A DNA stretch of 49,641 bases from an uncultured Methanosarcinales archaeon (lineage in GTDB: Archaea; Nanobdellota; Nanobdellia; Woesearchaeales; JAGLXL01), in contig CAYYLB010000001.1 in the NCBI GenBank assembly GCA_964472345.1, positions 1-49,641 on the forward strand, read 5' to 3'. Below are positions 4,610-43,052 of this stretch, piece by piece (the stretch's first letter is position 1; every line of letters starts with the position of its first letter). The notes under the pieces were generated by a model. That model was not told the origin of the DNA. It ran no database searches and saw only the letters and a list, made by a program, of their open reading frames with translations. The position numbers and the translations under genes are program-made.

Positions 4610-4850
4610 GGGAAAAGACCTGCTCTGCCTCGCGTTTCATCTCCACCGGCGTCTTTTTTGTACGGAGGTTGAAAGAGGAGAGGAATGCGAGGGGGTCGTC
4701 TATTCTCCTGACTGAGTGGAGCACGAGGGAATCCTCTTTGCTTTCCACAAGCACTTCCCCCGTAATTCCTAACTCACTCCGAACATTGAGGGGGATGTGG
4801 ACTCGGCCCTTCTTGTCCACGTGCAGGAGTTTATATTTCCCACCATCCAT
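4593..4850 (-). CDS. vapB: AbrB/SpoVT-fold antitoxin (VapB-like)
   Basis: KKGRVHIPLNVRSELGITGEVLVESKEDSLVLH is a typical swapped-hairpin AbrB motif. ATTTAAATAG box about 30 nt upstream of ATG 4850. Confidence 0.75.
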   Translation of the reverse strand: MDGGKYKLLHVDKKGRVHIPLNVRSELGITGEVLVESKEDSLVLHSVRRIDDPLAFLSSFNLRTKKTPVEMKREAEQVFSHEAVR

Positions 4851-4947
4851 AGTATGTTTAATGTTCCCACTACTATTTAAATATTTCTTTTCCCACAACT
4901 ACTTCCGCGGTGATGCTGATTCAAGTTGCGGAAGGCTCGCCCGGCCG

Positions 4948-10782: not shown

Positions 10783-10809
10783 CTCTTCCTCACCGAACGT
10801 CTCCGTGTC
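10783..10809. repeat. 27-bp direct repeat, copy 1 (duplicate of the rps3ae 3' end)
   Basis: CTCTTCCTCACCGAACGTCTCCGTGTC, identical 27/27 to 11968-11994. Confidence 0.95.
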
Positions 10810-10878
10810 ATTTTATATCTGTAATAATATTTATAACCGCCATAACATTTATAAGCAGGAACCGCATACGCGCTCTTG

Positions 10879-11082
10879 ATGACAACCACCCTATCGGTTA
10901 CCGAGGAAATAAGGGAGAAAATAAAAGAGTTTGGCTCAAAGGGGGAGACCTATTCAGATATCCTCGCGCGCCTTATCGAAGCTGCGCAGGAGCAGCAGGT
11001 AAGGGCACTCCTCATGGATACAAGGGGGACTTCTCAGGTAAGGGATGCGCTTGCACGGGCACGAAAAAGATGGCAGAAGTAG
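10879..11082 (+). CDS. putative antitoxin (small RHH/VapB-like archaeal family)
   Basis: TLSVTEEIREKIKEFGSKGETYSDILARLIE resembles the small archaeal antitoxin pattern. CATTTATAAGC box about 25 nt upstream. Overlaps the toxin gene by 13 nt. The track start at 10876 is TTG, so ATG 10879 is preferred. Confidence 0.6.
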   Translation: MTTTLSVTEEIREKIKEFGSKGETYSDILARLIEAAQEQQVRALLMDTRGTSQVRDALARARKRWQK

Positions 11083-11408
11083 TGATTACTGATGCCCTTG
11101 AGAATGAGATCAACCGGCACTTTCAAGGGCAGAGCGTTGAGATTTTTGAGCTGCTCCACACGCTTGGCGGTAATCCAAAGAAAGGCGATGTTGTTGGCGC
11201 TGTCGGCGGTGTCGTCATCAAAGAGCTGAAGTACGGGGCATACCGATTCTATTTTATCACTGACGCCTATAAGGTGAAGTTTCTCAAGAGCGAAGAACTG
11301 ACTGGCCTGATCATCAAATTTGTACGCATGTCCCGCAAGAACGACCAGCAGAAAGTGATCGAAAAAATCAAGAATGTCCTGAGGCTGCTGGGAAAAGAAG
11401 GATTCTGA
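11070..11408 (+). CDS. RelE/ParE-superfamily toxin-like protein
   Basis: LLHTLGGNPKKGDVVGAVGGVVIKELKYGAYRFYFITDAYKV matches the RelE/ParE core pattern (nP..G..l......k.r.g.YR..Y). Genetically coupled to the small upstream gene. Confidence 0.6.
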   Translation: MAEVVITDALENEINRHFQGQSVEIFELLHTLGGNPKKGDVVGAVGGVVIKELKYGAYRFYFITDAYKVKFLKSEELTGLIIKFVRMSRKNDQQKVIEKIKNVLRLLGKEGF

Positions 11409-11449
11409 CGCAGCGCAGGTTTAAGTTTCTTCTTCTCCAAACACCACTT

Positions 11450-11668
11450 TTACTCAAACTCGCTCCGTGGCTTTTCTGTCTGCTTGATGATATACTGGAG
11501 AACAAAGATTGTTACTTCGTTGTGATGCGGAACCCAGGTTGTTAACACTCGGCCGTCGCTTGTTGTTTTCTTGAAGGTTGTGTGCTTCCTCGAACGCACT
11601 TCCTGAAACCCATTACGCTGAAGGATTTGAACAACCTCACGCTGGGGTAATGGTTTGAGTTTTCCCAT
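11450..11668 (-). CDS. hicA: HicA-family mRNA interferase toxin
   Basis: REVVQILQRNGFQEVRSRKHTTFKK...VPHHNEV...LQYIIKQ is the YcfA/HicA dsRBD-like pattern. 72 aa. Confidence 0.85.
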   Translation of the reverse strand: MGKLKPLPQREVVQILQRNGFQEVRSRKHTTFKKTTSDGRVLTTWVPHHNEVTIFVLQYIIKQTEKPRSEFE

Positions 11669-11909
11669 GCAGAATCTTCTCTGGAACTGTTATAGGTATA
11701 TTGGCGAGAGACGTTGACATGAGCGCACGGAAATCTGGTTTCGGCGTATCCGGATCCTTCAAGTAATCATCAATGAGATCCCGCATGTTCTCTTTAACTT
11801 CCACTTCCGTCTTGCCTTGCGTCGCGATGTCTAAAAGAGGGCAACTTGCGACAAACCATTCTGTTTCTTTAGTGATAACGACCGGTAGCGGGATTTCCAT
11901 TTCTGCCAT
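11637..11909 (-). CDS. hicB: HicB/UPF0150-family antitoxin
   Basis: PLPVVITKETEWFVASCPLLDIATQGKTEVEVKENMRDLIDDYLKD is the typical HicB N-domain. TTTTAAATAC box about 30 nt upstream of ATG 11909. The longer track ORF to 12092 was rejected. Confidence 0.8.
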   Translation of the reverse strand: MAEMEIPLPVVITKETEWFVASCPLLDIATQGKTEVEVKENMRDLIDDYLKDPDTPKPDFRALMSTSLANIPITVPEKILHGKTQTITPA

Positions 11910-11961
11910 ACGAGGGAAGAAGCAAACCGAGTATTTAAAATTTGCGTGATTGAGGCAGGTA

Positions 11962-12780
11962 CTATGTCTCTTCCTCACCGAACGTCTCCGTGTCCTCGAT
12001 CGCCGGCTCTGGCTCAGACGGCGGCGCTGCGGGTTCGGCCGCTCCGCCTGCTTCCTGCTCCCCCGCGGACTGCTGCTCCCCTTCCATCTCACCCTGCATC
12101 TCTTCTGTCACCGTCCTCTTCCTGGCTTTCTTTTTTGGCGATTCATCAGCAGCCCCGGGCTTCGCCTCCTCTGTGGGCTCCTCGCCCGCCTTCTCGGCCT
12201 TGCCTTCGCGCGCGAACTCGACAATCTTGATCTCAACGGTCTTGAGCGGGTAAATGGCAGAAAGCCGCTTCTTGAGCTCGCTTTGCATGCTCCGGCTGGT
12301 GAGCTGCTGCACCAGTTCCAGAAACGTGCCCTTGCCGACCATGCGTGCGATATCGCCGCGGACCTTCTGGCGGAGCGCCGTTGCGACGGAATGCACACTC
12401 TTATGGAATGTGACCAGCAGCGGCTTGATCCGTATCCGCTGCCCTTCTTTGGTGAGCACGACAAAACTGTCGTCGATGCGTGTCGTGTTGCGCCGCGCGA
12501 GCCGCTTGAGGGCAGCGGGAACAATATAATAGCCAATGACGTCGGTGCGCAGCGATGCGCCTTCGTTCGCGGTAATCTTGAACTTCACGTAGGTGTTCTG
12601 GTCGCGCATGTCGCCGGTGATGTCTTTCAGGTTCGCATGCACGACGCGGCCGACCGCAACCGCCGGATCCGTCACATAGGTCTGCCCAAGCTCGGCATTG
12701 TCCAGTTCCTTGGGCGCGAGAATCGGATACCAGTTCTTCTTCTTGACTGCCGGTGCAACGGTTGCCTTCGCCTTCGCCAT
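11962..12780 (-). CDS. rps3ae: 30S ribosomal protein eS1 (S3Ae) with a long acidic C-terminal extension
   Basis: KKKNWYPILAPKEL...VGRVVHANLKDITGD...YVKFKI is the S3Ae signature region. TTTTTAAA box about 31 nt upstream of ATG 12780. The track start at 12792 is TTG. Confidence 0.9.
   Translation of the reverse strand: MAKAKATVAPAVKKKNWYPILAPKELDNAELGQTYVTDPAVAVGRVVHANLKDITGDMRDQNTYVKFKITANEGASLRTDVIGYYIVPAALKRLARRNTTRIDDSFVVLTKEGQRIRIKPLLVTFHKSVHSVATALRQKVRGDIARMVGKGTFLELVQQLTSRSMQSELKKRLSAIYPLKTVEIKIVEFAREGKAEKAGEEPTEEAKPGAADESPKKKARKRTVTEEMQGEMEGEQQSAGEQEAGGAAEPAAPPSEPEPAIEDTETFGEEET
11968..11994. repeat. 27-bp direct repeat, copy 2 (last nine sense-strand codons before T-stop of rps3ae)
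   Basis: Identical to 10783-10809. On the minus strand it encodes DTETFGEEE. Confidence 0.95.
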
Positions 12781-12896
12781 TGCGCTGCGCAAGAGGGAAG
12801 GGGTTTAAAAATGTATCGCGGCGGATTTGGTAACCCGATGCAGGTGGTGACAGAAGGAAAGGTTTATAAAGCGGTGCTTTTTTTCCCGTCCAGAAA

Positions 12897-29040: not shown

Positions 29041-29086
29041 AGGTTACGGCGGTTTCGCGCAGTTTTCACGACGATAAGAATGGCAG

Positions 29087-29362
29087 CTACCGCAGCTTTT
29101 TGGCTTCGGCCTTGAACTGCTCGGCCTGCTTGCGGAGCCGCGCGATCGCTTTCCGCAGCACGCCCTTGACATCGCAGTCCTGCGCCGTCTCGATCACAAA
29201 CCTCGGCACGCCCACCAGCGGATGGTCGATGGCATAGCTGGAGACGCTCACGGCATCATCGTTCCACAGCTCCTTCTTGAGCGCATTGCAGAAGCCGTGG
29301 TCGCTGCCGGCGAGCTCAAACACGAGGCGGCGCTTTTTGTCTTCGAGAATCTTGAGGTTCAT
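29087..29362 (-). CDS. rpoL: DNA-directed RNA polymerase subunit L (Rpo11)
   Basis: 91 aa. LKILEDKKRRLVFELAGSDHGFCNALKKEL...YAIDHPLVGVPRFVIET matches the RBP11-like dimerisation fold pattern. Confidence 0.85.
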   Translation of the reverse strand: MNLKILEDKKRRLVFELAGSDHGFCNALKKELWNDDAVSVSSYAIDHPLVGVPRFVIETAQDCDVKGVLRKAIARLRKQAEQFKAEAKKLR

Positions 29363-31107
29363 ATGGCGCGCGGAGCGGGCGGGGATTTATAAAGGTTATG
29401 GGCTCGCGGCGCAGTCCCGTCCCGCGCCCTCTTCCGCAGCTCCCGGATGTGCCGCTGGCGGTGGCGCTTCAGGTGCGCCTTCCGGTTGTGGAACCGCTCG
29501 ATCAGCAGCGAGAGGTGCTCCCCGCCGATGAAGTGCGGCAGCACGACATAATCGGCACCATGTTTGTAGAGTGCAAGCGCCTCGTCAATCGTGCTTGCGG
29601 TCACGAAGATCACAGGCTGCGGCCGCGCCCTCCGGAAGCGGCGCAGCAGCGTGACGGTGTCATCGAAGGAAGGGATGGTGGAGATGATCGTCTTCGGCCT
29701 GAACTGCTGGAGCGTCTCGAGCGTCTCGCTGTCGGACGCGTCGCCGTAGAAATACGGGACCTGCTGGTGCTCCAGCGCCTTGATCAGAACCGGGTTGAAG
29801 TCCACCACGAGCGTCGAGAAACGCTGCCTGCGCAGGCTCTGGTAGATGCTGCTGCCCATCCGGTGCGAGCCGATGAGAATCACTTCATGCTGGGCGTTCT
29901 GCGGGGACTCACGCCGCTCCCTTCGGCGCTGCTTCCGCTCGAATGGCACGAGGAGGGGGGCAAAGCGCCGGTACAGCCAGTCGCCATAGATGATCAGGTA
30001 GGTTGAGAGCCCAATGGTGATGACGCCGACCATCCCCACCAGCGAAACGGCTGCATCATTGACATGGCCGGCCTGCAGCCCCAGCGCCATCAGGATGAGG
30101 CTGAACTCGCTGATCTGCGCAACGGTGAGCCCGGCAAGAAAGCTGGTGCGGCTCGTGTAGCCGAAGAGCGCCATCAGGACGAAGACAATGAATGGATTCC
30201 CGATGAGGACGAAGAGCGACAGCAGCACTGCAGGCCAGAGGAGCGGCGCGGCGGAGGAGAGGAGCAGCTGCGCGCCGAGCACGACGAAGAACACCACGAG
30301 GAAGAAGTCCCTGAGCGGCCTGACGCGGGAGGCAAGCTCGTAGTGGTAGGGCAGCGCCGCAAGGCTGATGCCTGCGAGGAACGCGCCGATCTCGATGGAA
30401 AAGCCGAGCCACGACGAGGCAAGCGCAAGGCCGAAGCACCAGGAGATGCCGCCGAGGAAGAGCAGCTCCTGCGAGCGCGCGAGCGAGGAGAAGAGGCGCG
30501 GCAGCATCAGCTTGTAGAGCAGGTACACTCCGGCAAGGAGCAGTGCGCCTTTCCCCGCAGTCGAGAGGAGGGCCGCTCCCGGCTGCGCCGCCTGCTGCAT
30601 CCCGCTGATGAGGATCACCGCGGCGATGGCGATGAAGTCCTGCACGAGGAGGACGCCGAGCGCAATCTTGCCGTACAGCGTGTCGAGGTCGTTCTTGTCG
30701 CTGAGCAGCTTGACGATGATGATCGTGCTGCTGAAGGTGAGTGCGACAGCGATGTAGAGCGAGTGGAGCGGGGCGAAGCCGAGCAGGCGCGCGATGGCGT
30801 AGCCGATGATGGAGGTGAAGAGCACCTGACCGATGCCCGTGACGAGCGCGATGGGGCCAACTTCCTTCAGGACACGGGCGTTGAGGTTCAGGCCGACGAT
30901 GAAGAGCAGGAACGCCACGCCGATGGTGGAAAGGGTGCTGAGCAGCTCCGTGGCAGCGAGCAGGTTGAGCACCGACGGGCCGAGAAGGATGCCGGTGATG
31001 AGGTATGCGAGCAGGGGAGGCTGCTTCAGGAGGCGCGCGAGCAGGCCGAGCGCGGTGGCGATGATGACGATGACGCCGAGCTCCAGAAAGATGTCGCCCA
31101 TCACCAT
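29359..31107 (-). CDS. CPA2-type cation/proton antiporter with a C-terminal RCK/TrkA-N domain (Kef-like)
   Basis: About 12 TM helices followed by the Rossmann motif EVILIGSHRMGSSIYQSL...VVDFNP. Start placed at Met20 of the track ORF because TTATAAAC (31127-31135) lies about 25 nt upstream. Confidence 0.88.
   Translation of the reverse strand: MVMGDIFLELGVIVIIATALGLLARLLKQPPLLAYLITGILLGPSVLNLLAATELLSTLSTIGVAFLLFIVGLNLNARVLKEVGPIALVTGIGQVLFTSIIGYAIARLLGFAPLHSLYIAVALTFSSTIIIVKLLSDKNDLDTLYGKIALGVLLVQDFIAIAAVILISGMQQAAQPGAALLSTAGKGALLLAGVYLLYKLMLPRLFSSLARSQELLFLGGISWCFGLALASSWLGFSIEIGAFLAGISLAALPYHYELASRVRPLRDFFLVVFFVVLGAQLLLSSAAPLLWPAVLLSLFVLIGNPFIVFVLMALFGYTSRTSFLAGLTVAQISEFSLILMALGLQAGHVNDAAVSLVGMVGVITIGLSTYLIIYGDWLYRRFAPLLVPFERKQRRRERRESPQNAQHEVILIGSHRMGSSIYQSLRRQRFSTLVVDFNPVLIKALEHQQVPYFYGDASDSETLETLQQFRPKTIISTIPSFDDTVTLLRRFRRARPQPVIFVTASTIDEALALYKHGADYVVLPHFIGGEHLSLLIERFHNRKAHLKRHRQRHIRELRKRARDGTAPRAHNLYKSPPAPRAI
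29386..29393 (-). promoter_or_regulatory. TATA box (TTTATAAA) for rpoL, embedded in the 3' end of the upstream antiporter ORF
   Basis: Lies 24-31 nt upstream of the rpoL ATG (29362). Confidence 0.5.
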
Positions 31108-31281
31108 CCAAGGAAGGACGGCGCCATGGTTTATAAGGCTTGCTTCGGGGCGGCTGTGGGACAAAATGAATGTGGAGAAACTCCCACAGCTTTTTCTTTA
31201 ACAGAACAACTGTTTCCTTTATCGAACAGAGGCCTGCTGCAGTGAACAGCGCTATCGTTCCTTCTTTTCTGAAGCGGCGTT

Positions 31282-32364
31282 TTACCCGTCCGCCCCGGAA
31301 ACGGGCGCTGCGCCCTGCCTGACAGCGATTTCCGGAGTGAACGTCAGCTTGTGGTCCTTGATGATGAACAGCGCCGTGATGCTGCGGATGCTCCTGAACT
31401 GCGCGCGCAGCGCTTCCAGGTCATGGTGCAGCTGGATGTTGTTCCTCACCGCGCCGTACCACTCGAACTGCCATGGCTTCCGTGTCTCAAACAGGAATCC
31501 GGTGTCCGGATGGCGCTTCAGGTGCTCGCGCAGCCGGGCGCGCTCTCCGTCGTCCGCAAGCTCGATGAACGCGGAGAACGCAATCTGATGGAGGGACGAG
31601 AGGCTCGCCAGCGGGTTGCATGCGAGGATGACCTGTTTCCTGATGAGCTGCTGCACCCGGCCCTTGATGGTGTTGAACGGCTTGCCGAGCTGCTGCGCGA
31701 TCGCGGCAATCGATGCGCGGCAGTCCGGTGCGAGGGCGCGGATGATGGCATGGTCAAGCCCGTCAAGCTCCGCAGTCCCTGATGAAACACTGGCCTTGTC
31801 CAGCAGCTTGTGGAATGACGCATCGGTGCGCGGGGCGGCGAGCGTTTCCATGCCTGCTTCCTGCAAGAACCATCCGGGCAGGTTCTGGTAGCGGTGCATC
31901 GCGGTTATCTCAAGCAGCTGTGCCTTGCCCAGCGAGCGTTGGCAGATGTTTTTGATGGCCTGCTCAACCGATTTCGCATCATCCTTCCTGGCGATGAAGA
32001 ACACCACGAGGTTCCAGGAGCCGAGGCACTGCCCGACCCAGATGGTGTTTGGATGCAATGCAAGCTGCGCCATGAGTTCCTGCTCCTGCTCCAGCGGCGG
32101 ATCCCTGATGTTGAGCGCAAGCGTGAAGAAGCGGAAGCCCAGCGCATAGGGGTTGAGCACGAGCATCGTGCCGAGGATCGTTCCGGTCGCGTACAGCTTC
32201 TCCAGCCGGTACCGCACGCCATCCTTGGACAGGTGCACGAGCCTGCCGAGGAATGACGGCGAGAGCCGGACGTTGTGCGCCAGTGCCGCGAGCAGCTTCC
32301 GGTCGAGAGCGTCAAGCTCCCTGCCGGCGGGTTCCGGCTTGACGACGCCGCGGTGCTGGTGCAT
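31282..32364 (-). CDS. tandem (double-module) Lrp/AsnC-family transcription regulator
   Basis: The two HTH segments are LDALDRKLLAALAHNVRLSPSFLGRLVHLSKDGVRYRLEKLYATGTI and LDHAIIRALAPDCRASIAAIAQQLGKPFNTIKGRVQQLIRKQVI. TTTATAAG box (32388-32395) about 25 nt upstream. Confidence 0.8.
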   Translation of the reverse strand: MHQHRGVVKPEPAGRELDALDRKLLAALAHNVRLSPSFLGRLVHLSKDGVRYRLEKLYATGTILGTMLVLNPYALGFRFFTLALNIRDPPLEQEQELMAQLALHPNTIWVGQCLGSWNLVVFFIARKDDAKSVEQAIKNICQRSLGKAQLLEITAMHRYQNLPGWFLQEAGMETLAAPRTDASFHKLLDKASVSSGTAELDGLDHAIIRALAPDCRASIAAIAQQLGKPFNTIKGRVQQLIRKQVILACNPLASLSSLHQIAFSAFIELADDGERARLREHLKRHPDTGFLFETRKPWQFEWYGAVRNNIQLHHDLEALRAQFRSIRSITALFIIKDHKLTFTPEIAVRQGAAPVSGADG

Positions 32365-32496
32365 TCTGGCTTGAATTTGGCGCTTTGCTTATAAATGTTT
32401 GCGGCTGCAATTGAGCGGAAAACCGCTGGCTGCTGTTTTATATAGATGTTAGTGTTATTACTAATAGATTACAACAAACAACCTGAGGTGGTAAAA

Positions 32497-33042
32497 ATGA
32501 GCGTAAGCGATGTGTTAAGGACGGATGTTGGTACTTTGGTGAAACGGGCTTGGGATGTGGTGAGCGGTGCCAGTGCGAAACGGATCGACGAGGCGCGAAG
32601 CGAGAGAAATGACCAGATACGCAAGAGGATATTGGAAAATCATGATTTGACGAGTGGAATACGCCGCAACTTTTATGGTGAGGAAATTGCTCCAAGAAGC
32701 CCGGCCGAGCTCAGAATTGCGACGATGAATGAGGCGTGGAGTGAGGACTTCAGGAAGAGGTCTCCACTGTACGAAGATCCAGTCTATGCCGGGGTTGTTG
32801 CCCTCCTCGGTGGCATCACGAAGTTAGGGAGTCCAATTGACCTCCTGGCTCGTGCTCTTATGCAAAGGATAACTGACAGAAAAATGGGAGAAAAGGAGTA
32901 CAAAGGGCTGGAGGTACTCACTGCCGATTATAATGCACTCCGGGTCCCTAATAGTGATGCCCTTACTGAGCTGAATAGGTATATCCTCTCAGCTTACATA
33001 TACGACACATTATCGGTTCCGCCGTACCGCTATAAGGGATAG
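32497..33042 (+). CDS. hypothetical protein, 181 aa
   Basis: SD-like GAGGTGG 6 nt before ATG 32497 and a TTTTATATA box further upstream. No motif recognised. Confidence 0.55.
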   Translation: MSVSDVLRTDVGTLVKRAWDVVSGASAKRIDEARSERNDQIRKRILENHDLTSGIRRNFYGEEIAPRSPAELRIATMNEAWSEDFRKRSPLYEDPVYAGVVALLGGITKLGSPIDLLARALMQRITDRKMGEKEYKGLEVLTADYNALRVPNSDALTELNRYILSAYIYDTLSVPPYRYKG

Positions 33043-33217
33043 AGAACTTTGAATAGCCCCCAGTTTCAGTGAAAGTTGTTCGGAAGAATGATGAAAATCA
33101 GGGGATAGTCAAAGCTCGACAAATTGCAATCGGGCGGAAAAATCCTGGGGGGTTTAAAATAGAGTGCTGCTGATACGCTTGGTGGTGACGTGAGAGGGGC
33201 TTGGCGTCCCTGCAAGG

Positions 33218-33258
33218 TTCTCATTACCAGTGAGAGATACTTCTCATTGCCAATGAGA
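33218..33258. promoter_or_regulatory. two tandem palindromic operator-like sites
   Basis: TTCTCATTACCAGTGAGA (33218-33235) and TTCTCATTGCCAATGAGA (33241-33258). Each contains the inverted repeat TCTCA-N7-TGAGA, 23 bp apart, directly upstream of ATTTAAATA (33261-33269). Confidence 0.5.
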
Positions 33259-33291
33259 ACATTTAAATACTCCTTTCTTCCCATTATCACT

Positions 33292-34503
33292 ATGATACCT
33301 AAAGAAACAATCCGGGAGGTCGCACGAAAGCAGCGGAACGAGCTTGCGGCGTCCGAGAAGGGGGTTCCGAGGGTTCTGCTCTCGTCCATTGACACGACGG
33401 TGCCGCATGCGCTCATCATTTCCGGCATCCGGCGGTGCGGCAAGAGCACGCTGCTCAGGCAGCTCATGAGCAGGATGAATGGCTGCTGCTACTTCAATCT
33501 GGAGGATGCCCGGCTGACAGGGTTTGTTGCAGCGGATCTTGAGAAGCTGCGGGAGGTCCTCGCCGAGGAATACGGCGCCTGCACCCATTATTTCCTTGAT
33601 GAGATCCAAAACGTCCCGGGATGGGAGCGGTTCGTGAGGACCCTGCAGGATGAAGGGAAGCATTTTGTCATCACCGGCTCCAATGCCTCGCTCCTCAGCA
33701 GGGAACTTGGCACCAAACTCACGGGAAGGCACATCACCCATGAGCTGTTCCCTTTCTCCTACACGGAAGCGCTCCGGTTCCTCGCGAAAAAGCCATCGGA
33801 AGCCTCGTTTGCCGAATACCTTGAGCGCGGCGGTTTTCCGGAATATCTTGCCTACGGAACGACCGGCATTCTTCAGGAGCTCTTCATTGACATCATCACG
33901 CGGGACGTTGTCGTGCGGCATGGGCTGCGCGATGCGGCGACGGCGCGAGAAATGGCTGTTTTCCTCACGACCAATGCAGGCAAGGCGTTTTCGTACAACA
34001 AGCTCAAGGACTACTTCAGGCTTGGCTCGATGAACACGGCAAAGGCGTACGCCTCTTACTTCGAGGACAGCTACCTGCTCTTTACCGTCCCCCGCTTCGA
34101 GTACTCGTTCAAGAAGCAGCTCATCGCCCCAAAGAAAGCATACAGCATTGACTGCGGCTTTGCCTCGGCAAACTCCGCATCGTTCTCCTCAGACAAAGGG
34201 AGAATGCTTGAGAACTGTGTGTTCCTCGGGCTGAGAAGGCAGCACAAAGAGATATTCTATTTCAAAGGCGCGGGGGAGTGCGACTTCCTTGTGAAAGAAA
34301 AGGGAAAAATAACCCTGGCCGTGCAGGTCTCGTACGAAGTAACTGATGAGAACAAAGAGCGGGAACTCAACGGGCTGCAGGAAGCGATGAAAACGTGCAA
34401 ACTGCAACAGGGAGTCATCGTGACATTCGACCAGGAAGACCGGCTCGGCAGCATCCGCCTCATTCCGGCATGGAAATGGCTGGGGGAGATAGGGAAATCA
34501 TAG
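33292..34503 (+). CDS. AAA+ ATPase of the COG1373 / DUF4143-containing family
   Basis: Walker A GIRRCGKSTLL. Walker B-like HYFLDEIQNVPGWE. C-terminal CDFLV...VQVSY region typical of that family. ATG 33292 sits about 25 nt after the TATA-like box. Confidence 0.85.
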   Translation: MIPKETIREVARKQRNELAASEKGVPRVLLSSIDTTVPHALIISGIRRCGKSTLLRQLMSRMNGCCYFNLEDARLTGFVAADLEKLREVLAEEYGACTHYFLDEIQNVPGWERFVRTLQDEGKHFVITGSNASLLSRELGTKLTGRHITHELFPFSYTEALRFLAKKPSEASFAEYLERGGFPEYLAYGTTGILQELFIDIITRDVVVRHGLRDAATAREMAVFLTTNAGKAFSYNKLKDYFRLGSMNTAKAYASYFEDSYLLFTVPRFEYSFKKQLIAPKKAYSIDCGFASANSASFSSDKGRMLENCVFLGLRRQHKEIFYFKGAGECDFLVKEKGKITLAVQVSYEVTDENKERELNGLQEAMKTCKLQQGVIVTFDQEDRLGSIRLIPAWKWLGEIGKS

Positions 34504-34547
34504 CTTGTCAAGACCCGGCGAATCGCATGCTGCTTCTCAGGCGCTCT

Positions 34548-34645
34548 ATCTCCTTCACCACGTCGCCCGCGATGAAGCTGTAGCCGCGCTTCTTCTTCAG
34601 CAGCAGCTCGCCCATCATCTTGCTCACGAACGATGCCGCTTCCGC
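34548..34645 (-). pseudogene. detached, diverged copy of the nnrD 3' end (gene remnant or att-like repeat)
   Basis: 87/98 nt identical to 34991-35088 by hand alignment, with a 42-nt perfect core (34562-34603 = 35005-35046). Encodes AEAASFVSKMMGELLLKKKRGYSFIAGDVVKE versus AEAASFINKRIGGLLLKKKRGYSFIAGDMVEE. Confidence 0.75.
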
Positions 34646-34682
34646 ACGCAAAAACAACTCTCCCGGCCGCGCCAGGAAAAAA

Positions 34683-34985
34683 CTACAAAACCAGCCTCTT
34701 CGCCGCTTCTGCGCTCTTCTTCTGCTGCTCAGCAGTTGCACCAAGCTCCGTGCCATGTTTCTCTGCTAGCCGGTAAAGGTCATGAACGGAGAGATTCAGC
34801 AGCTCCGCTGCCTTTCCGAGAGAGATTCTTCCTTCGCTCACGAGATCCAGGGCGTATTCCTCCGCACCAAGGTGCATGAGCTGGCGCAACGCCGCGCTCT
34901 TATCAACATAGTACTGCCGGCTTCTCAACTGCGCAAGCTCAATCATCTTTTTTGGTATCCTCAATGGGTAAGGTAGCGATTCCAT
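34683..34985 (-). CDS. UPF0175-family (antitoxin-like HTH) protein, orphan
   Basis: SEGRISLGKAAELLNLSVHDLYRLAEKHG is the family hallmark. ATG is 1 nt after the nnrD stop. No cognate PIN/DUF3368 partner is present. Confidence 0.75.
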   Translation of the reverse strand: MESLPYPLRIPKKMIELAQLRSRQYYVDKSAALRQLMHLGAEEYALDLVSEGRISLGKAAELLNLSVHDLYRLAEKHGTELGATAEQQKKSAEAAKRLVL

Positions 34986-34986
34986 A

Positions 34987-35916
34987 TTACATCTCCTCCA
35001 CCATGTCGCCCGCGATGAAGCTGTAGCCGCGCTTCTTCTTCAGCAGGAGGCCGCCGATCCGCTTGTTGATGAACGATGCCGCTTCCGCGCTCCGCATCAG
35101 GTCGTTCGTGATGGCGCTGGCTGGGACTGTTTGTGCAGCGGTTTGTGCGGTGCGGGCCTGCTGGCTGTGGCGGGCTCCCCTTCCGGCGGATGTGAAGGAC
35201 GCCTTTTCCCTCGCCACCGCCTGCGCAAGAAAGCCGGCGCACAGTCCAGCAAGAACATCCCCCATCCCGCCGCGCGCCATGCCGGGGTTGCCTCCAGCGA
35301 CTTTTTTGATGGCTGCTCTTGAGACGAGGTAATCCGCCGGCCCCTTCAGCAGCAGGACGTTGCTTCCCGCGCAGCGCTGGAGCGCTTTTGCCTTCCGCGA
35401 AACGCTGCCGACCCTGCTGAGCCGCGCTCGGCCTGAGTTGCGCAGCAGCAGCTGCAATTCAACGGCGTGCGGCGTGATGATCGCATTTTCAATCTCCTGC
35501 AGCGAAAGCACCTTGATCGCGTCAGCGTCGATGACTTTTGGCATGCTGCGTGCTGTTTTCATCAGCCTCCGGAAGAACGCTTTGGTTTCCTTCCGCAGCC
35601 CGGCGCCATTCCCCGCCGCAAGCACGTCGCACTTCCTGAGCAGGGGGGCGAGCAGCTTCAGGTGCCCTGGCGCAAGGAATTTCCCCGGCAGCTTCTTCGT
35701 GATGAGATCGGGGCTGCAGCAGTTGATCGCCCATGCCACCTTTTCCGGCGCAGCAATCGTCACCAGGTCGCAGCCGGCGCGCAGCGCAGCCAGCCCCACA
35801 AGCACGAGCGTGCCGACGTAGTCTTCCGAGCCGCCGATCACGAGGACATGGCCGTGCTGGCCTTTGTGCGATGCCTTCGTGCGGCGCATGAGGCGCTTGA
35901 TGGCGGGGAGGTTCAT
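34987..35916 (-). CDS. nnrD: ADP-dependent NAD(P)H-hydrate dehydratase (YjeF C-terminal / carbohydrate-kinase family)
   Basis: HKGQHGHVLVIGGSEDYVGTLVLVGLAALRAG and GGMGDVLAG motifs. About 30 aa of low-complexity insertion after LAQ. Confidence 0.85.
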   Translation of the reverse strand: MNLPAIKRLMRRTKASHKGQHGHVLVIGGSEDYVGTLVLVGLAALRAGCDLVTIAAPEKVAWAINCCSPDLITKKLPGKFLAPGHLKLLAPLLRKCDVLAAGNGAGLRKETKAFFRRLMKTARSMPKVIDADAIKVLSLQEIENAIITPHAVELQLLLRNSGRARLSRVGSVSRKAKALQRCAGSNVLLLKGPADYLVSRAAIKKVAGGNPGMARGGMGDVLAGLCAGFLAQAVAREKASFTSAGRGARHSQQARTAQTAAQTVPASAITNDLMRSAEAASFINKRIGGLLLKKKRGYSFIAGDMVEEM

Positions 35917-35937
35917 GCTGCAGGGTAACGCTCCAGC

Positions 35938-35982
35938 CCATTTAAACGTTTGCGGATGACTACGGGGTAGTAAAGCTTATAT
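35938..35982. promoter_or_regulatory. divergent leaderless promoter pair
   Basis: TTTAAATG (minus sense) lies 23 nt from the nnrD ATG at 35916. AAAGCTTATAT ends 23 nt from ATG 36005. Confidence 0.5.
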
Positions 35983-36004
35983 CGGGGCGTACTCCAGTGC
36001 CGCC

Positions 36005-39000
36005 ATGGCGGTTACAGAAGCTGACATCAGTGATCTGGGTATCACTATCCCCGAGGCAAAAGTCATTAATTGGGATTCATCATATGGGACGTCACTCGCA
36101 GACCTCCTGCGCTTTTTTCATGCAGCCGGAGATATGCATGGTGTCAGCAAGATCCGGGAAACCCTGCGCAACCTCAGCAGGCTGGGATATACATATCTTG
36201 AGGGTATCAAACTCGAAGCGGTCGGATTCGATAAATGTGTCAAAACTGGCGTACAATCCAAGTTCAGCGGGAAAAAGCTCAAAAAGGAAGTCTGGCACTT
36301 CAAAGTGCGTGCGGATGGCGGTCGTGGTGAACGCTTTGGAACCGTCGGCGACCTCCATCTGAGCCGGAAGCATGCCGAGTACAGCATCGTCTTTGAGCGC
36401 CTTCCGGAGCCGGGGTTTCTTGATGAATTCAAGGCAATCCACGGGGAGCTCCACGAGAAACGGGCTGCATCACGGCGGCAGACGAACCTCGAGGAGCGTG
36501 TCGAGGAATCGTTCCATTTGACGGACGAGTTACGCTCCGCACTGCTGAGCCGAGGTGTCGATCCCGGTATGTTCATGCGCGCCGCTGACTTCCTGCAGTA
36601 CGGTCCCGACCTTCTCGCTGGCAGGATGAAAGAGGTTGTCTATGATCTTGACCCAACAAATCATGGGAAAGACATCACCCAAATGCTCGCAAAGATCGGC
36701 TCGATCCGCATCGAATACCCTGACGTGGCGAGGGCCTTGCTCCTGATGACGAGCCGGTTTGGCCGTGCAACGCAGGATGATGTGCGCCTCGTCCGCGCAT
36801 GGGCGTACCAGTTCCTTCCGGTTTCGTCCTCGCTGATGGGGGCGATCCGTAAGGACGTCGAATTGCTCCGCAGCAAGACGGTAAAACTGGCAGATGGACA
36901 TCCGTACACTATCGATCCTTTGCAGGACAGGACATTCAGGCCCGTAAGGATTTTCAAGCGGGCGAAGGTCGTTGAAAAGAGTGTGCTCGAGACGCTCGAG
37001 GAGAGGACGACGCCGTACGTGACCGTCGCGGAGGCCGTCGGCATTGAGCATCATGCATTTCCCGGCCTTATTGCGTTTCGTGAGGCTTACAACCGTGAGC
37101 AGCTTTATGCATATTTTGGTGTCACCGATCCTCGTAACCTCAGTGAATGGCGCACCGCCTTTGCCAAGATTGAGGCTGCGGGGAAAGCAGACGGACGGTG
37201 GAGGGGCCACGATCCTGATGGTGAGCGTCTTTTCACCCAACAGCAGCGTGAAACGATCGATCTCTTTATGAGGATAGCAAACACAAAAGGAAGGGGAAGC
37301 CGCATCACGAGGCTGGCGCGCCGCCTCTCCATGTCGGATGGCCCGGACCTTTTCCGCAGGGTTGCCATTCTCGAGCGCAAGCTGCGGCTGCGCGAGCAGG
37401 AGCAGGATCCCCGGAAGCAGACGGGAATCATGCGGGGAAATTATATCCTTGCGAGAGAGTACCTTGAAAAGACAGGTGTTGATGCACGCCGCATCGTCGA
37501 CATCATCACTAGGAGCCACATCGCGGCGCTTGCCGAGCACCGCACGGAGTACGAACGCGATCTCCTGCGTGATGTGGGTCTCGCTCCGGCGCACTGGGAG
37601 AACATCTTGACCATCGACATCCCCATCATTCGCCAGGAGGCTTGTGTCGGTCTTGTCAGTGCGAGATATACGAAAACTCCCAAGGCGCCTGCGGAAAACC
37701 GTGCCTCACTGCTTGAACGGTTGAAGACGTTCACGGGCAACTATGATACCATTGACACCACGGCTGAAGCCGAGCTGCGCGCCATCGCCGCTGTGCAGAA
37801 GTTCGAGCTCGACACTGCTGGCGTAAAGGCAGACGAGGGCAAGTTGAAGCCTGCTCCTGCATTTTCCCTTGGCCATTTTGTTGATGATGCAGGGAAGATC
37901 ATTGTTGGGTACCTTAGCAAGGCGCAACGAAGGACCATTAGCGGGGTTTTCCGGCTGGTCTCATCAGACCCTATCCGGAGCGCGCTCGCTGGAGCAACGG
38001 ACCCCGCCTCGGCATCGGGCTTGAAGGAAAAAATCCTTGCTGCTGAAAAGGACTTCAGGTACATCAAAAATGGCGGCGCGGGGATGGAAAACCCTTACTG
38101 GTTATTCCCCCAAGTTGTGAGGCTCGTTGATCCGAATAAACTAAAAGCGAAAGCTGGCGGGGTAAGTGTCCTGAATGTTGCTGCGCTGAAATACGCTGAC
38201 GCACAGTCAAGAAACTACCAGCCGCCACCTGAGAGCTCCCTGAACCAACTGGGGTTTATGACAGCAGACAGGAGGTACCTGACCTACCTTGTGCATGAAA
38301 AAGTCATCGCCGATGCGTCTAATCTCCTCGGCCTCTTCACGCCAACGGCGGACACGGACCGATGGCGCGTCCACGCCGATCTCGTTGGTGCCGTCAACAT
38401 CGCCTTTCAGAAACTAAACGAACGCTTGACTGAAGCGCAGACGAAATGTGAGTCGCTCGCTAAGGCAGGTTACTCCATTGATGATCTCAAGCAACGAGTT
38501 CAGCGCGCTGCGTCGCAGGCGTACCTTAGGGATGGCCGGGCGGTTATGCTTGAGCTGCCGCAACTTCTCGGGCTTGATAGATACCCATCAAGAGCCGTTG
38601 AGGGTCTGGACAACCCCACAATAGCCCACCTCAAGGAGGACATTGTTGCGCTCGATGGTGTGCTGCGGGCGTTTGAAGCGCTGCCGGTGTTTGATTTTGG
38701 GATGATGGTTGATGAAACGGCTGTTAGATTGGTCATAGGATCAAATGAAAAAGTGATGTGGGGTGTCTATAGCACTGGTAAAAATCCAACAATGGAGCAG
38801 GTTGCTGCGCTCTCCCAGAAGGGAGCGAATCTTGGTCAGCACCATCGCTATCACTTTCAGGGTAGGGAATGGAGAAAGCAATGCACTGTTGATGAACTCT
38901 GCCGGGATGCGCTCTTTTTTTACAACTTAAATAACGATAAGGGCTACCACTTCAGGCTTCAGATCCTGCAAGGAAAGCAGCCATCCCCTCAAACGCCTTC

Positions 39001-39013
39001 GCCCGGTGGCTGA
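36005..39013 (+). CDS. large orphan protein, 1002 aa, function unknown
   Basis: Uninterrupted ORF with host-like composition and its own TATA box at leaderless spacing. No Walker A and no Cys clusters. See the findings for a tentative RNase H/RuvC-like motif set. Confidence 0.85.
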   Translation: MAVTEADISDLGITIPEAKVINWDSSYGTSLADLLRFFHAAGDMHGVSKIRETLRNLSRLGYTYLEGIKLEAVGFDKCVKTGVQSKFSGKKLKKEVWHFKVRADGGRGERFGTVGDLHLSRKHAEYSIVFERLPEPGFLDEFKAIHGELHEKRAASRRQTNLEERVEESFHLTDELRSALLSRGVDPGMFMRAADFLQYGPDLLAGRMKEVVYDLDPTNHGKDITQMLAKIGSIRIEYPDVARALLLMTSRFGRATQDDVRLVRAWAYQFLPVSSSLMGAIRKDVELLRSKTVKLADGHPYTIDPLQDRTFRPVRIFKRAKVVEKSVLETLEERTTPYVTVAEAVGIEHHAFPGLIAFREAYNREQLYAYFGVTDPRNLSEWRTAFAKIEAAGKADGRWRGHDPDGERLFTQQQRETIDLFMRIANTKGRGSRITRLARRLSMSDGPDLFRRVAILERKLRLREQEQDPRKQTGIMRGNYILAREYLEKTGVDARRIVDIITRSHIAALAEHRTEYERDLLRDVGLAPAHWENILTIDIPIIRQEACVGLVSARYTKTPKAPAENRASLLERLKTFTGNYDTIDTTAEAELRAIAAVQKFELDTAGVKADEGKLKPAPAFSLGHFVDDAGKIIVGYLSKAQRRTISGVFRLVSSDPIRSALAGATDPASASGLKEKILAAEKDFRYIKNGGAGMENPYWLFPQVVRLVDPNKLKAKAGGVSVLNVAALKYADAQSRNYQPPPESSLNQLGFMTADRRYLTYLVHEKVIADASNLLGLFTPTADTDRWRVHADLVGAVNIAFQKLNERLTEAQTKCESLAKAGYSIDDLKQRVQRAASQAYLRDGRAVMLELPQLLGLDRYPSRAVEGLDNPTIAHLKEDIVALDGVLRAFEALPVFDFGMMVDETAVRLVIGSNEKVMWGVYSTGKNPTMEQVAALSQKGANLGQHHRYHFQGREWRKQCTVDELCRDALFFYNLNNDKGYHFRLQILQGKQPSPQTPSPGG

Positions 39014-39515
39014 TGGTGTTCTTCTCCTCCCGCGCCAGCGACGAGATCGGCTTGTCCATGCCTTTCACGGCCATGATCCGCTCATAGGGCATGACATCTT
39101 TATCTGCATCAAACACCTGCTCCGTGAGCGTGCAGTCCAGCCGCCCTTCGAACAGTTGCGGCTCAGCGCCCGGCTCGCAGTACGCCACACAGCAGAGGAA
39201 AAACGCATCACGCGGCTTGCCTTCCAGCAGCTTCAGCAGCCCTTCATACCCGAGGCAGCCGAACATCAGCCGCGGGTGCGCTCCGGGAAAGTTCCTGTGG
39301 GCGGCGAAGAAGATGCCGGTGTCATCAACCATCACAGGCTTCTGGTGTTCTTCTGCAAGCCGCTTGGCCTCGCGCTTCGCGACCTCCTGGATGGTCGCTT
39401 CCTTGTCCTCCTGCTTTGGGGCATCAAGCTGCACGACGGTGATGCCGTATCTGCCGAGGACCGCGCGCGCTTCCGAGAGCTTGTGCTTGTTTTGGGTGGC
39501 GAAGAGGAGGTTCAT
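38952..39515 (-). CDS. rdgB: non-canonical purine NTP pyrophosphatase (HAM1/RdgB/ITPase family)
   Basis: LLFATQNKHKLSEA, VMVDDTGIFF, EKNTISHRAKAF motifs. 187 aa. Confidence 0.9.
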   Translation of the reverse strand: MNLLFATQNKHKLSEARAVLGRYGITVVQLDAPKQEDKEATIQEVAKREAKRLAEEHQKPVMVDDTGIFFAAHRNFPGAHPRLMFGCLGYEGLLKLLEGKPRDAFFLCCVAYCEPGAEPQLFEGRLDCTLTEQVFDADKDVMPYERIMAVKGMDKPISSLAREEKNTISHRAKAFEGMAAFLAGSEA

Positions 39516-39928
39516 GTTCCTTTCCGGATCAACCGGAGCATGTCAATATTTGTAAAAACAATGACACTCTGTTGGTCAAGAAAGTGTGGATCGTGCGTCC
39601 AAATGCCCGCAGCGCCGCTTGCCTTGGCTGCAGCAAGGTACGGAACATCATTCAAGTCCCCGAGTTCTTTTTCACATTCTTTGATGAATGAGGCATAATC
39701 TTCAATCGCAAGAATAGTGATTCGTTCAAAAAGAAGAGAGAGCAATACCCCAAACATATCGTCAGTGAGTGATGCTTTCCGGAGAATGTCCAGCCGGTAT
39801 TTTTCGATTTCGCTTCTGATGAAATCTGGCGCAACAAATGCAAACGTCCTGCTGAAGATCAGCTCACGCGTCGTGCTGTCTTTGAGCAGCGCAGCGATGA
39901 CACGATTGCTGTCGATAACAACCTTCAT
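39512..39928 (-). CDS. vapC: PIN-domain protein (VapC-like)
   Basis: VVIDSNRVIAAL, SEIEKY, LNDVPYLAAA, WTHDPHF give the four acidic PIN positions. Its stop overlaps the rdgB start. Confidence 0.85.
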   Translation of the reverse strand: MKVVIDSNRVIAALLKDSTTRELIFSRTFAFVAPDFIRSEIEKYRLDILRKASLTDDMFGVLLSLLFERITILAIEDYASFIKECEKELGDLNDVPYLAAAKASGAAGIWTHDPHFLDQQSVIVFTNIDMLRLIRKGT

Positions 39929-40158
39929 AGGGGGAGTCCATGCCGCCGCGCGATGCCCTTGTTAATTTTTCTGCCGATTTCGAGTGCATCCGCTTCCGTC
40001 AGCCTGCTTTTCGAGAGGAGCCGATCCATGAGATCAAGTTTTTTTGCATGCTCCCACATTGCTTGTCGTGCGATTTCACTCCACCGGATCTCGCGATGCT
40101 TTCTCATTACCGTATGGAGCTCCTCCGGGACCGCAAAGGTTACATTGGTCATGTGCAT
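39925..40158 (-). CDS. putative antitoxin partner of the PIN protein
   Basis: 77 aa. Stop overlaps the PIN start (4 nt). TFAVPEELHTVMRKH is an RHH-like beta-strand start. The track start at 40161 is GTG, so ATG 40158 is preferred. Confidence 0.6.
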   Translation of the reverse strand: MHMTNVTFAVPEELHTVMRKHREIRWSEIARQAMWEHAKKLDLMDRLLSKSRLTEADALEIGRKINKGIARRHGLPL

Positions 40159-40234
40159 CACCTTAAGTAGAAGAAGTAGGTTTACTTATTTAAACGTTTT
40201 GGTGGGTAACACGCAGGCCCAGGCCTCTCCTAGT

Positions 40235-41023
40235 TCACCCTCCCTTCACCGCACACCCGCCGCCCGGCACGAACGCCATCACCTCATCGACGCTTCCCGC
40301 CCCGAGCATCTTCTGGATCTTCTTTGCGGCGTCGCTTGTCTTGTGCGGGCCGGGAACGAGCAGCGCCAGCTTCTCCGACTGCTTCTTGATGGCCTCGACA
40401 GGGCCGCCGACCACCCGGCCTTCCTGCGTGACGCCCACCGCCAGCTCAAGGATCGGATGGAAATACCGCTTCTCGCCGTAGATCATGAATGCGCCTTTGC
40501 CCATGTACTCGCCTGCCTTCGCCGTCTTGCTCGCCTGCTCAGGCTTCACCGCAAAGACGTCGAGCGTCGTCACGCCGAGCTTCCATGCCTTGCTGTACGC
40601 AGCCGTCGCCTGCGCGGCCTCCTGCAGCGTCGCAGCGCCTGCCTCCTGCCCTTTCTTCACGACAAAAAACGGGCTCCCGGGGATGTCGGCGTGGAAGACA
40701 AGGTCCGCCGCTTCGGCGTGCTTTTTGATGGCAATCTCGTTGCTCGTCGCGTCCCTCCCGCCGATGCAGAGGAAGCCTTCGGAAGAGGTAAACCAGTGGA
40801 ACTTCTCGTACCACTCCTTTTTTCCCGGTGCGGCGCGCGGCTGCTCCTTCTCAAGCTCGCTGAGCTGCTTATCCTTTTCTTTCAGCAGCGCCGCAAGCTT
40901 CCGCTGCGCTTCCGCGATGGCCTTTTCAGCACCTGCAAGCTTCTGCCGCGCTTTCTTCGCCTTCTCATAATACACCGCAGCGTTCTGCTCAACCGTCTTG
41001 TTCAGAAATATCTCCGTGCGCAT
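40235..41023 (-). CDS. NFACT-R (DUF814) domain protein; short RqcH/NEMF-like protein lacking NFACT-N
   Basis: Coiled-coil N-terminus, then WYEKFHWFTSSEGFLCIGGRDATSNEIAIKKHAEAADLVFHADIPGSPFFVVK, the NFACT-R hallmark. Only 262 aa. Confidence 0.8.
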   Translation of the reverse strand: MRTEIFLNKTVEQNAAVYYEKAKKARQKLAGAEKAIAEAQRKLAALLKEKDKQLSELEKEQPRAAPGKKEWYEKFHWFTSSEGFLCIGGRDATSNEIAIKKHAEAADLVFHADIPGSPFFVVKKGQEAGAATLQEAAQATAAYSKAWKLGVTTLDVFAVKPEQASKTAKAGEYMGKGAFMIYGEKRYFHPILELAVGVTQEGRVVGGPVEAIKKQSEKLALLVPGPHKTSDAAKKIQKMLGAGSVDEVMAFVPGGGCAVKGG

Positions 41024-42194: not shown

Positions 42195-43052
42195 TTATCC
42201 CCAATCAATTTTTTCTTTCTTCTTCTCAGTCAAATGCAAATAATTTTCAGGTGTAACAACAGACTTACCTGTCTTTTGTTCAAGCTCTTTTCGTGTATTT
42301 TTAGCAATATCCCCACCTTCTTTAGCGGTTTGTCTGAATTGTGGAAACTCCTTTGCATCTTTCGCAACAGTAATATCGGTTGTCGCTTTCTCACCAACCA
42401 TAGTCAAAATTAACTCCCAATCAGTCATGTGATCCCTGAGATTCTGGTTCTGCTTTCGTAACCCTTTGAATTGCTTGTATTCTCCAATAGTCTTCCCAAA
42501 TGTGGCTTTGGAAATCTCATTAGTCAGGATGGCAAAATCTTTCTCTTCCTGAACGCCTCTGGATTTCCATTCATCGGTTAAATCCTGCCTGATGGCAATG
42601 CCCCTTAACCTTTTGTCTATCCAGCCTTTTGGATAGCCTTTGAGTTCGTAGTATTCTTTCACTCTATCTTGAGCAAGTTCTGGATTTTCTATTTCTTCAA
42701 TACGTTCCTTGCCCACTTGTGCTAGCCACATCTTAAACGGCTCTGCTTTCTTGGACGGGATTGATTGGATAAGCCTAAAAGCATTTTTGGTATTAACACA
42801 GTCAGTATATCTTAATTTACCATCTTCTGCTGGAATTTTCAACTGTACCCAAATTGGGGACAGTTCAAGAGCAATAAACTCTCTGTCTTTAACTTTACCC
42901 CAATACTGCCTGGGGGTAGGGCTGTCTGTTAAAATTTCAACGATATCTACAACAGAATAAAACCATTCATTATTATACAAGAGTCTTCTAATCTTTCGAT
43001 CTTGAAATACTATCAGCCTTTTTTGAGCCTCTTTTTCTACCATCTTTAACAT
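42195..43052 (-). CDS. Bro-N domain protein, DinD-like (phage/plasmid-associated family)
   Basis: FQDRKIRRLLYNNEWFYSVVDIVEILTDS is the Bro-N core. The gene is markedly AT-richer than its neighbours. Confidence 0.75.
   Translation of the reverse strand: MLKMVEKEAQKRLIVFQDRKIRRLLYNNEWFYSVVDIVEILTDSPTPRQYWGKVKDREFIALELSPIWVQLKIPAEDGKLRYTDCVNTKNAFRLIQSIPSKKAEPFKMWLAQVGKERIEEIENPELAQDRVKEYYELKGYPKGWIDKRLRGIAIRQDLTDEWKSRGVQEEKDFAILTNEISKATFGKTIGEYKQFKGLRKQNQNLRDHMTDWELILTMVGEKATTDITVAKDAKEFPQFRQTAKEGGDIAKNTRKELEQKTGKSVVTPENYLHLTEKKKEKIDWG

Follow-up and report, generated by a model that had tools for sequence, protein, structure and literature searches.

How a toxin-antitoxin (TA) type gene came to lie, without its toxin, between two copies of the end of a housekeeping gene is the question raised by the nnrD locus of a Woesearchaeota-type (DPANN) archaeon. 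The DNA studied (hereafter the window) is a complete metagenomic contig of 49,641 nt. On its minus strand nnrD, the gene for NAD(P)H-hydrate dehydratase, is followed by a gene for a UPF0175-family antitoxin-like protein and then by a detached, diverged copy of the nnrD 3' end. Both the antitoxin gene and the second copy are absent from the closest relatives found, L081 and L088. We put at roughly one in two the probability that the two copies are attachment-site (attL/attR)-type junctions, left by single-crossover integration of a small circular DNA with its own imitation of the nnrD 3' end.

The repeated nnrD end and its cargo

Repeat search and alignment with MAFFT gave a direct repeat of 98 nt without gaps, identical at 87 of the 98 positions and with a start-to-start spacing of 443 nt. 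The features of the locus, listed in the direction of nnrD, are:

34987-35916, minus strand: nnrD (NAD(P)H-hydrate dehydratase), 309 amino acids; Pfam PF01256 Carb_kinase, E=1.9e-38; 88% amino-acid identity to the homologue P0002
34991-35088, minus strand: copy A, the proximal repeat and attL-like junction, consisting of the final 32 codons of the working nnrD (repeat search, MAFFT)
35005-35046, minus strand: 42-nt perfect core of copy A, encoding LLKKKRGYSFIAGD, the proposed crossover region; identical also in the L081 orthologue
34986-34989, minus strand: nnrD stop codon TAA (34987-34989) and the single spacer base (34986) before the UPF0175 ATG; homology to L081 ends at this boundary
34683-34985, minus strand: gene for a UPF0175-family antitoxin-like helix-turn-helix protein, 100 amino acids, without toxin partner; PF03683, E=5e-5, 23.3 bits
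34648-34680, minus strand: terminator-like hairpin of 10 pairs (23 nt, 34658-34680) with a T-run, just behind the UPF0175 stop at the distal end of the cargo; the best such hairpin in the region
34548-34645, minus strand: copy B, the distal repeat and attR-like junction, a detached nnrD 3' fragment (repeat search, MAFFT); 86/98 identical to L081
34508-34547, minus strand: in-frame continuation of copy B, comprising the third base of the last repeat codon (I), the tail ERLRSSMRFAGS and a stop codon (34508-34510)
33190-34503, plus strand: AAA_14/DUF4143 ATPase gene (Pfam), context outside the bracketed cargo; absent from L081 and L088 (blastn)

The core occupies positions 34562-34603 in copy B, and a mismatch-free run of 42 nt is expected with P=0.016 if the 11 differences are placed at random. 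Upstream of the core, 8 differences fall within a 27-nt patch, whose form specific to copy B is GTGAGCAAGATGATGGGCGAGCTG, and the perfect blocks measure 18 and 42 nt; no exact direct repeat of an 18-mer was obtained in 20 shuffles of the window. In the 40 nt beyond either repeat end, identity is at background level (11/40 and 12/40), and the repeat is therefore not part of a larger duplication. When the last 100 nt of each of the 44 candidate genes in the window were aligned locally with the gene's own downstream 3.5 kb, a downstream copy of the 3' end was found for only two genes, nnrD (z=48) and rps3ae (z=18).

The two copies end differently. The window NnrD closes with ...GDMVEEM* and has no C-terminal tail, whereas a basic tail of 4-35 amino acids follows EEM/EEI in 119/119 other NnrD homologues, so that the window protein is the sole tailless one among 120. 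The translation of copy B ends in ...AEAASFVSKMMGELLLKKKRGYSFIAGDVVKEI and then runs on for 12 further in-frame codons; only 4 nt separate its stop from that of the DUF4143 ATPase gene, which is convergent. This continuation (34508-34547) is probably the displaced original nnrD end. Source-named NnrD homologues were all labelled Woesearchaeota or Nanoarchaeota, and a thermosome gene and rps3ae are present on the contig. A look-up of the exact window NnrD sequence gave no record. The window NnrD and P0002 also share, ahead of the last helix, an insert of about 35 amino acids with many Ala, Arg, Gln and Thr residues (35100-35220, residues ~235-275), which is missing from the other homologues inspected.

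The bracketed cargo measures 345 bp (443 bp for the whole unit) and spans exactly the interval from stop codon to terminator. With 23.3 bits, the score of the UPF0175 protein for PF03683 lies under the gathering score of 27.9; the model is matched by 26 of the 27 aligned family members (best E=1.5e-10), and the homologues are at most 63% identical to the window protein, those with a named source coming from Woesearchaeota. In six of six related loci the UPF0175 gene is situated 1-2 nt downstream of a gene for a DUF3368 (PIN-like) toxin of 135-161 amino acids; between the toxin 3' end, GGAGGAnnnTAA, and the ATG lies a single base. The window junction (GTGGAGGAGATG TAA T ATG) has the same layout of stop, one base and ATG, with nnrD in the toxin's place. 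Since no DUF3368 gene was found within the 49.6-kb window and nnrD occupies the toxin position, the UPF0175 gene is an orphan antitoxin gene. The nnrD end GGAGGAGATG resembles the toxin 3' ends, and most likely the UPF0175 gene was fused to nnrD through the GGAGGA..TG similarity of the two ends. It is probably co-transcribed and translationally coupled with nnrD, a ribosome-binding site (GGAGGAG) being predicted in the last nnrD codons. The GC content at third codon positions (GC3) of the UPF0175 gene is 0.61, compared with 0.75-0.87 in core genes, and is likewise low in the other TA genes of the contig. No gene-end repeats were found around the complete DUF3368-UPF0175 pairs in L082, L084 and L086, and no UPF0175 relatives on viral contigs.

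The first-pass annotation of this DNA had described the gap-free repeat with its perfect core, a copy B with neither a gene body upstream nor a stop at the homologous position, and an orphan UPF0175 gene as the only gene between the copies, its ATG 1 nt after the nnrD stop. All of these descriptions held, and the larger tandem segmental duplication that it had named as a reason for doubt is not there. What it had missed is that the 1-nt gap between stop and ATG is the toxin-antitoxin spacing of the DUF3368/UPF0175 family.

Two of the related loci call for separate mention. In L086 (GCA_016177315.1, 4592-5497) the nnrD 5' start is immediately preceded by a complete DUF3368-UPF0175 pair, with an ATGA overlap; as one of six contexts, and with no such adjacency among 80 nnrD loci, it was treated as coincidence and not as a real association. 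In L082 a homologue of the AAA_14/DUF4143 ATPase (34% identical) is located 1.3 kb upstream of the DUF3368-UPF0175 pair.

The empty site and the divergence of the copies

L081 (ENA, 14 kb) and L088 (JGI) are 99.9% identical to each other and represent one lineage. Their nnrD shares 89% DNA identity with that of the window over 999 nt, in an alignment that ends at 34990, the base before the window stop, and their NnrD continues with a tail of 25 amino acids. The UPF0175 gene, copy B and the ATPase gene are all missing, and synteny is regained at an open reading frame (ORF) of 181 amino acids and an AsnC-type regulator gene (blastn). The site is thus empty in L081/L088, and the insertion is specific to the window's lineage. 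A scan of metagenomes with a degenerate core pattern returned L088 alone, which belongs to the strain of L081. Empty-site alleles, which the first-pass annotation had suggested looking for, therefore exist, and the insertion at the nnrD 3' end that it had proposed is borne out by the comparison with L081/L088.

The locus lies in a strain-variable stretch. Synonymous divergence (dS) between the window and L081 is a mosaic over window positions 29076-40403 (rpoL 0.07, asnC 0.09, Na/H exchanger 0.18, nnrD 0.28, ham1 0.53) at a constant ratio of nonsynonymous to synonymous divergence (dN/dS) of about 0.22, which points to frequent recombination around variable genes. Divergent from nnrD, at 36005-39013 on the plus strand, is a gene for a 1002-amino-acid protein without Pfam match, whose L088 counterpart has 803 amino acids (called as 655 in L081); the N-termini are recognisably homologous while similarity at the DNA level is undetectable, as in a hypervariable large gene.

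Comparison of the two copies with the L081 orthologue gives a mixed picture. Copy A is identical at 94/99 positions (5 differences) and copy B at 86/99 (13 differences), the contrast being confined to the part upstream of the core, where it is B that deviates and A that is like L081. Copy B, however, keeps a family-typical basic tail, has together with this tail a host-like GC3 of 0.85, and ends in a compact convergent gene arrangement. The divergence between the copies has been shaped by selection: the 8 amino-acid changes of B all fall at family-variable positions, mostly to residues present in homologues, and random 12-nt mutants of A fare far worse against the family profile than B does (P about 0.001-0.003). 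With the changes limited to such sites, random decay of A does not account for B. A BLOSUM test of the A/B changes that is independent of the family was not significant (P=0.125). The proportions of nonsynonymous (pN, 0.124) and synonymous differences (pS, 0.113) between A and B are similar, from which some relaxed selection on this divergence is possible. Three codons carry double hits, none of them in the 42-nt stretch.

The data are best explained by a hybrid, in which the part of A upstream of the core and the part of B downstream of it, with the tail, would be native and the crossover would lie in the core. The earlier alternatives had been that a foreign nnrD end replaced the native one, or that the native end was displaced and is decaying. 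The insertion at the 3' end stands; simple decay of the displaced copy does not agree with the comparison to random mutants of A. As to which copy is native, the comparison with relatives points both ways: A is the closer one to L081, but B has a tail of the type found in the 119 homologues.

Recurrence of the layout

The same layout is present at rps3ae, 23 kb away in the window, as had been claimed at first pass; here a perfect repeat brackets a cargo (10810-11967) composed of TA-type genes:

11968-11994 and 10783-10809: perfect 27-nt repeat, the last nine codons but one of rps3ae
11637-11909: hicB
11450-11668: hicA (Pfam HicA, 5.5e-9)
10876-11082: DUF7557/VapB-like gene of a convergent pair
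11070-11408: second gene of the convergent pair, 112 amino acids

The proximal copy ends in ...EEET* and the distal copy in ...EEEGA*. No relative closer than 58% was available to show an empty site at rps3ae.

A scan for recurrence, covering 925 kb of Woesearchaeota DNA, added L040 (JAHFSD010000007.1, 750-818 and 1346-1414), from another Woesearchaeon. Here the last 69 nt of a gene for an Obg-like GTPase are repeated 596 nt downstream with 87% identity. The repeats bracket an ORF of 63 amino acids, whose ATG overlaps the GTPase stop, and a further UPF0175 gene, which at 29.8 bits exceeds the gathering score. One copy encodes ...HRDVVEIVSGR*, the other ...HREVIEVVVGR*; between them only conservative changes occur, three of them double hits (P=0.0027). 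The 63-amino-acid ORF may be a C-terminal remnant of a DUF3368 toxin, but this reading was set aside, its alignment to DUF3368 being in the expected register but reaching only E=0.025. In L005 (DUFZ01000011.1, 9524-9642 and 10242-10281) the 3' part of an intron-containing tRNA gene (Rfam, 43.6 bits) recurs 632 nt downstream; the repeat pair encloses 595 nt with a single ORF of 166 amino acids that has no Pfam match, and beyond the second copy comes a ParE-type TA pair. Integrases classically target tRNA genes at their 3' ends. No integrase was found in the inserts at nnrD, rps3ae, L040 and L005, and a scan of viral contigs for both repeat cores by exact pattern found nothing.

Gene-end duplications of the kind for which a search had been proposed earlier are present at rps3ae in the window and in L040 and L005 elsewhere; the TA region 3861-4898 gave no gene-end repeats. 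This region contains a gene for a ribbon-helix-helix protein (3861-4190) and a PIN/AbrB-like TA pair (4217-4898), and a gene for a BRO-N domain protein is located at 42195-43052. A candidate repeat in L025 was discarded, the tagged ORF being antisense to a HAD hydrolase gene and probably spurious. The octamer CTGCTGAA (Leu-Leu-Lys codons; 35039-35046 and 34596-34603 in the window) occurs in the nnrD and L040 cores and not in that of rps3ae, probably by chance.

Origin of the scar and comparison with known systems

If the scar arose by integration, a circular molecule would have carried its own diverged nnrD 3' end and a UPF0175 gene that had already lost the DUF3368 toxin, and a crossover within the shared identical core would have produced two hybrid copies. 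In the proximal hybrid, host sequence upstream of the core would be joined to element sequence downstream, completing nnrD with a new stop and placing the UPF0175 gene behind it. The distal hybrid would consist of element sequence upstream of the core and the original nnrD end with its tail, detached and presumably silent. The crossover may have been made by homologous recombination of the host or by a tyrosine integrase that either acted in trans or was deleted afterwards, and the element may be a remnant or may have been this small from the start. Integration is favoured because the duplication then arises by construction, because the hybrids preserve the protein and because one of the cases is a tRNA gene. 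Also in its favour are the empty site in L081/L088, the clustering of the mismatches, the selection-shaped changes of B, a cargo GC3 below that of core genes and the recurrence of the layout. Rival explanations are kept alive by the lack of an integrase, by the tiny size and by microhomology at the proximal junction.

Several observations weigh against integration. The unit measures only 443 bp, whereas the smallest described archaeal cryptic integrated element has 2.6 kb and an integrase. In agreement with the earlier statement that no recombinase is present, the cargo and the ~40 window ORFs scanned gave no match to Phage_integrase, resolvase or transposase models (Pfam). The proximal junction looks as if nnrD and a toxin 3' end had been fused illegitimately where they share GGAGGA microhomology. 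The core is identical in L081 as well, so its perfection need not mark a crossover. Homology of the B tail to the L081 tail found no support, as 105/300 shuffles scored as high in local alignment. The comparison draws on a single close outgroup lineage. Of 80 other Woesearchaeota nnrD loci, none has its 3' end duplicated or carries UPF0175 within 6 kb, and nnrD is therefore no recurrent target. Finally, the DUF7557/112-amino-acid pair is also found downstream of rps3ae in the distant L097, at housekeeping-level divergence (L097 7108-8414 against window 10876-12792: RPS3Ae 57% and TA proteins 66-68% at the amino-acid level, AT-rich promoter region TTATAAATGTTATGGnGGTTAT, no flanking repeat). 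This suggests that the pair and rps3ae form an old linkage and that the pair is not simply roaming cargo, import of the neighbourhood fitting better.

Import of this kind is the content of an explanation that we consider unlikely at nnrD: one-sided homologous import by homology-facilitated illegitimate recombination (HFIR), a process reportedly described by de Vries and Wackernagel in 2002. A linear donor fragment from a related strain that already possessed nnrD (ending EEM*), UPF0175 and terminator would have been anchored in nnrD, and its far end joined illegitimately 98 nt before the recipient nnrD end, which would make A the donor allele and B the native end. Such an event would be in keeping with the lack of a recombinase among the window ORFs scanned, with A and B differing like two functional alleles, with the native-type tail and context of B, with the mosaic dS of 0.07-0.53 across neighbouring genes and the frequent recombination it indicates, and with an rps3ae block that holds a TA pair known as an old rps3ae neighbour from L097. 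It would also suit the microhomology of the proximal junction with toxin 3' ends: when the locus is examined for the marks of HFIR, an anchor in nnrD is plausible, the distal joint has an overlap of at most 3 nt (GCG), and the proximal joint shows the GGAGGA..TG similarity to toxin ends. However, a chance joint would be needed inside the last 27-98 nt each time, at nnrD, rps3ae, the L040 GTPase gene and the L005 tRNA gene, so that a duplication arising by construction is more economical. Two simple alleles would not be expected to combine perfect blocks (18 and 42 nt) with a 27-nt patch that holds 8 differences, sliding-window identity of nnrD to L081 reveals no clear import tract, and how the donor arrangement itself arose is not explained by this reading. 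A literature search yielded no archaeal case of HFIR.

Less probable still is an intragenomic template switch or staggered-break repair, by which the toxin stop, UPF0175 and terminator that close a TA operon would have been copied into the nnrD end under duplication of 98 nt, the copies being identical at first and the detached one decaying thereafter. The sharpness of both junctions, the proximal one with its GGAGGA..TG microhomology to toxin ends, the exact extent of the cargo from stop codon to terminator and the placement of nearly all differences on the B lineage with L081 as outgroup speak for it, and a pN (0.124) close to pS (0.113) and a non-significant BLOSUM test (P=0.125) would match relaxed selection on the detached copy. 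Decay is made less likely by the restriction of the 8 amino-acid changes of B to family-variable positions (P=0.001-0.003), by three double-hit codons beside a 42-nt stretch without differences (P=0.016) and by the changes at L040, which are all conservative and include three double-hit codons (P=0.0027); moreover, the 49.6-kb window contains no DUF3368/UPF0175 locus as a source. An assembly artefact, in which two variants of the nnrD 3' end from co-occurring strains were joined into one contig, is highly improbable. The window is a whole metagenomic contig and the locus varies between strains, but collapse at a shared core swaps ends and does not place them in tandem, real molecules must contain the unique junction 'terminator|GCGGAAG', other projects have independently assembled the same architecture (L040 and L005), and a second case (rps3ae) lies 23 kb away on the same contig. 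A transposon-type target-site duplication does not fit a repeat of 98 nt at 89% identity with neither inverted repeats at the cargo ends nor a transposase. An integron cassette was excluded, as neither an attC-like long imperfect palindrome nor GTTRRRY at the junctions nor intI was found, the 10-bp terminator hairpin being the only structure (a dedicated attC model was not run). A Microcystis TA module with flanking direct repeats, intergenic and resembling a miniature inverted-repeat transposable element, is not applicable.

TA genes are notoriously mobile; to our knowledge, the movement of their chromosomal copies is mostly unexplained. That antitoxin genes lie between att-like, protein-preserving gene-end copies in both the window and L040 suggests that a carrier bringing its own substitute for the gene end has integrated more than once. 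As a speculative and rather doubtful extension, Woesearchaeota may harbour integrase-less cassettes of 0.4-1.2 kb that mostly combine TA genes or antitoxin remnants with a short, function-preserving 3'-end mimic of a host gene or tRNA gene, and that insert there by single crossover, through host recombination or an integrase in trans. Such mini-cassettes would provide a concrete mechanism for the movement of TA genes between genomes; were they frequent among DPANN archaea, some of the variation in gene content between strains with these tiny genomes would be accounted for, and metagenomes could be searched for such events by a simple sequence signature. If the repeats are instead decayed remnants or accidents of recombination, what is seen at this strain-variable site is just an ordinary scar. 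A literature search turned up no description of such a small, integrase-less, TA-linked variant.

Archaeal integrated elements are known from 3'-distal parts of protein-coding genes, where a new stop codon comes from the element, and their att sites are tens of bp long (29-69 bp in Crenarchaeota) (PMC6563490). The nnrD locus resembles them in its flanking direct repeats, one of which forms the intact end of the host gene, in the stop supplied by the putative element and in the empty site of relatives. Unlike these elements, which measure 2.6-98 kb and encode an integrase by definition, it has a cargo of 345 bp with one gene and no integrase, and repeats of 98 nt that are 89% identical. Integrative and mobilizable elements (IMEs) and cis-mobilizable elements (CIMEs) of Firmicutes and Proteobacteria occupy the 3' ends of rpsI, rpmG, rplL and guaA and frequently carry TA modules, the CIMEs being integrase-less remnants (PMC5704250). 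The target at the 3' end of a ribosomal-protein or other housekeeping gene and the TA-type cargo are shared with them; in contrast, IMEs and CIMEs are bacterial, usually several kb long and located beside, or derived from, integrative and conjugative elements or IMEs at the same site, whereas no parent element or integrase for the nnrD site was found at 80 related loci.

In the treatment of the gene end a parallel may be offered by e14 and phage 21, which Hill, Gray and Brody are said to have described in 1989 as integrating into E. coli icd. There, a diverged, function-preserving copy of the 3' end carried by the element completes the gene, and the original end is left as a pseudo-fragment at the far junction, but both are prophages with integrase and excisionase. 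With the DUF3368/UPF0175 type II TA pairs the locus shares a cargo that probably belongs to the UPF0175 family and the arrangement of stop, 1 nt and an ATG preceded by GGAGG; it departs from them in that the toxin is missing and a housekeeping gene stands in its place, while the related pairs (6/6) are complete and not flanked by gene-end repeats. Integrons have been reported in archaea, namely in Nanoarchaeota (bioRxiv 10.1101/2022.02.06.479319). Their cassettes are similar in being small, promoter-less single ORFs with frequent TA cargo and a circular intermediate, and dissimilar in that integron insertion duplicates no target gene end and relies on attC and intI, neither of which was found here. 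Set beside these systems, the nnrD locus, a clearly delimited insertion scar in a strain-variable stretch, introduces no new principle; it is an unusually small, recurrent, integrase-less variant with TA genes in DPANN archaea.

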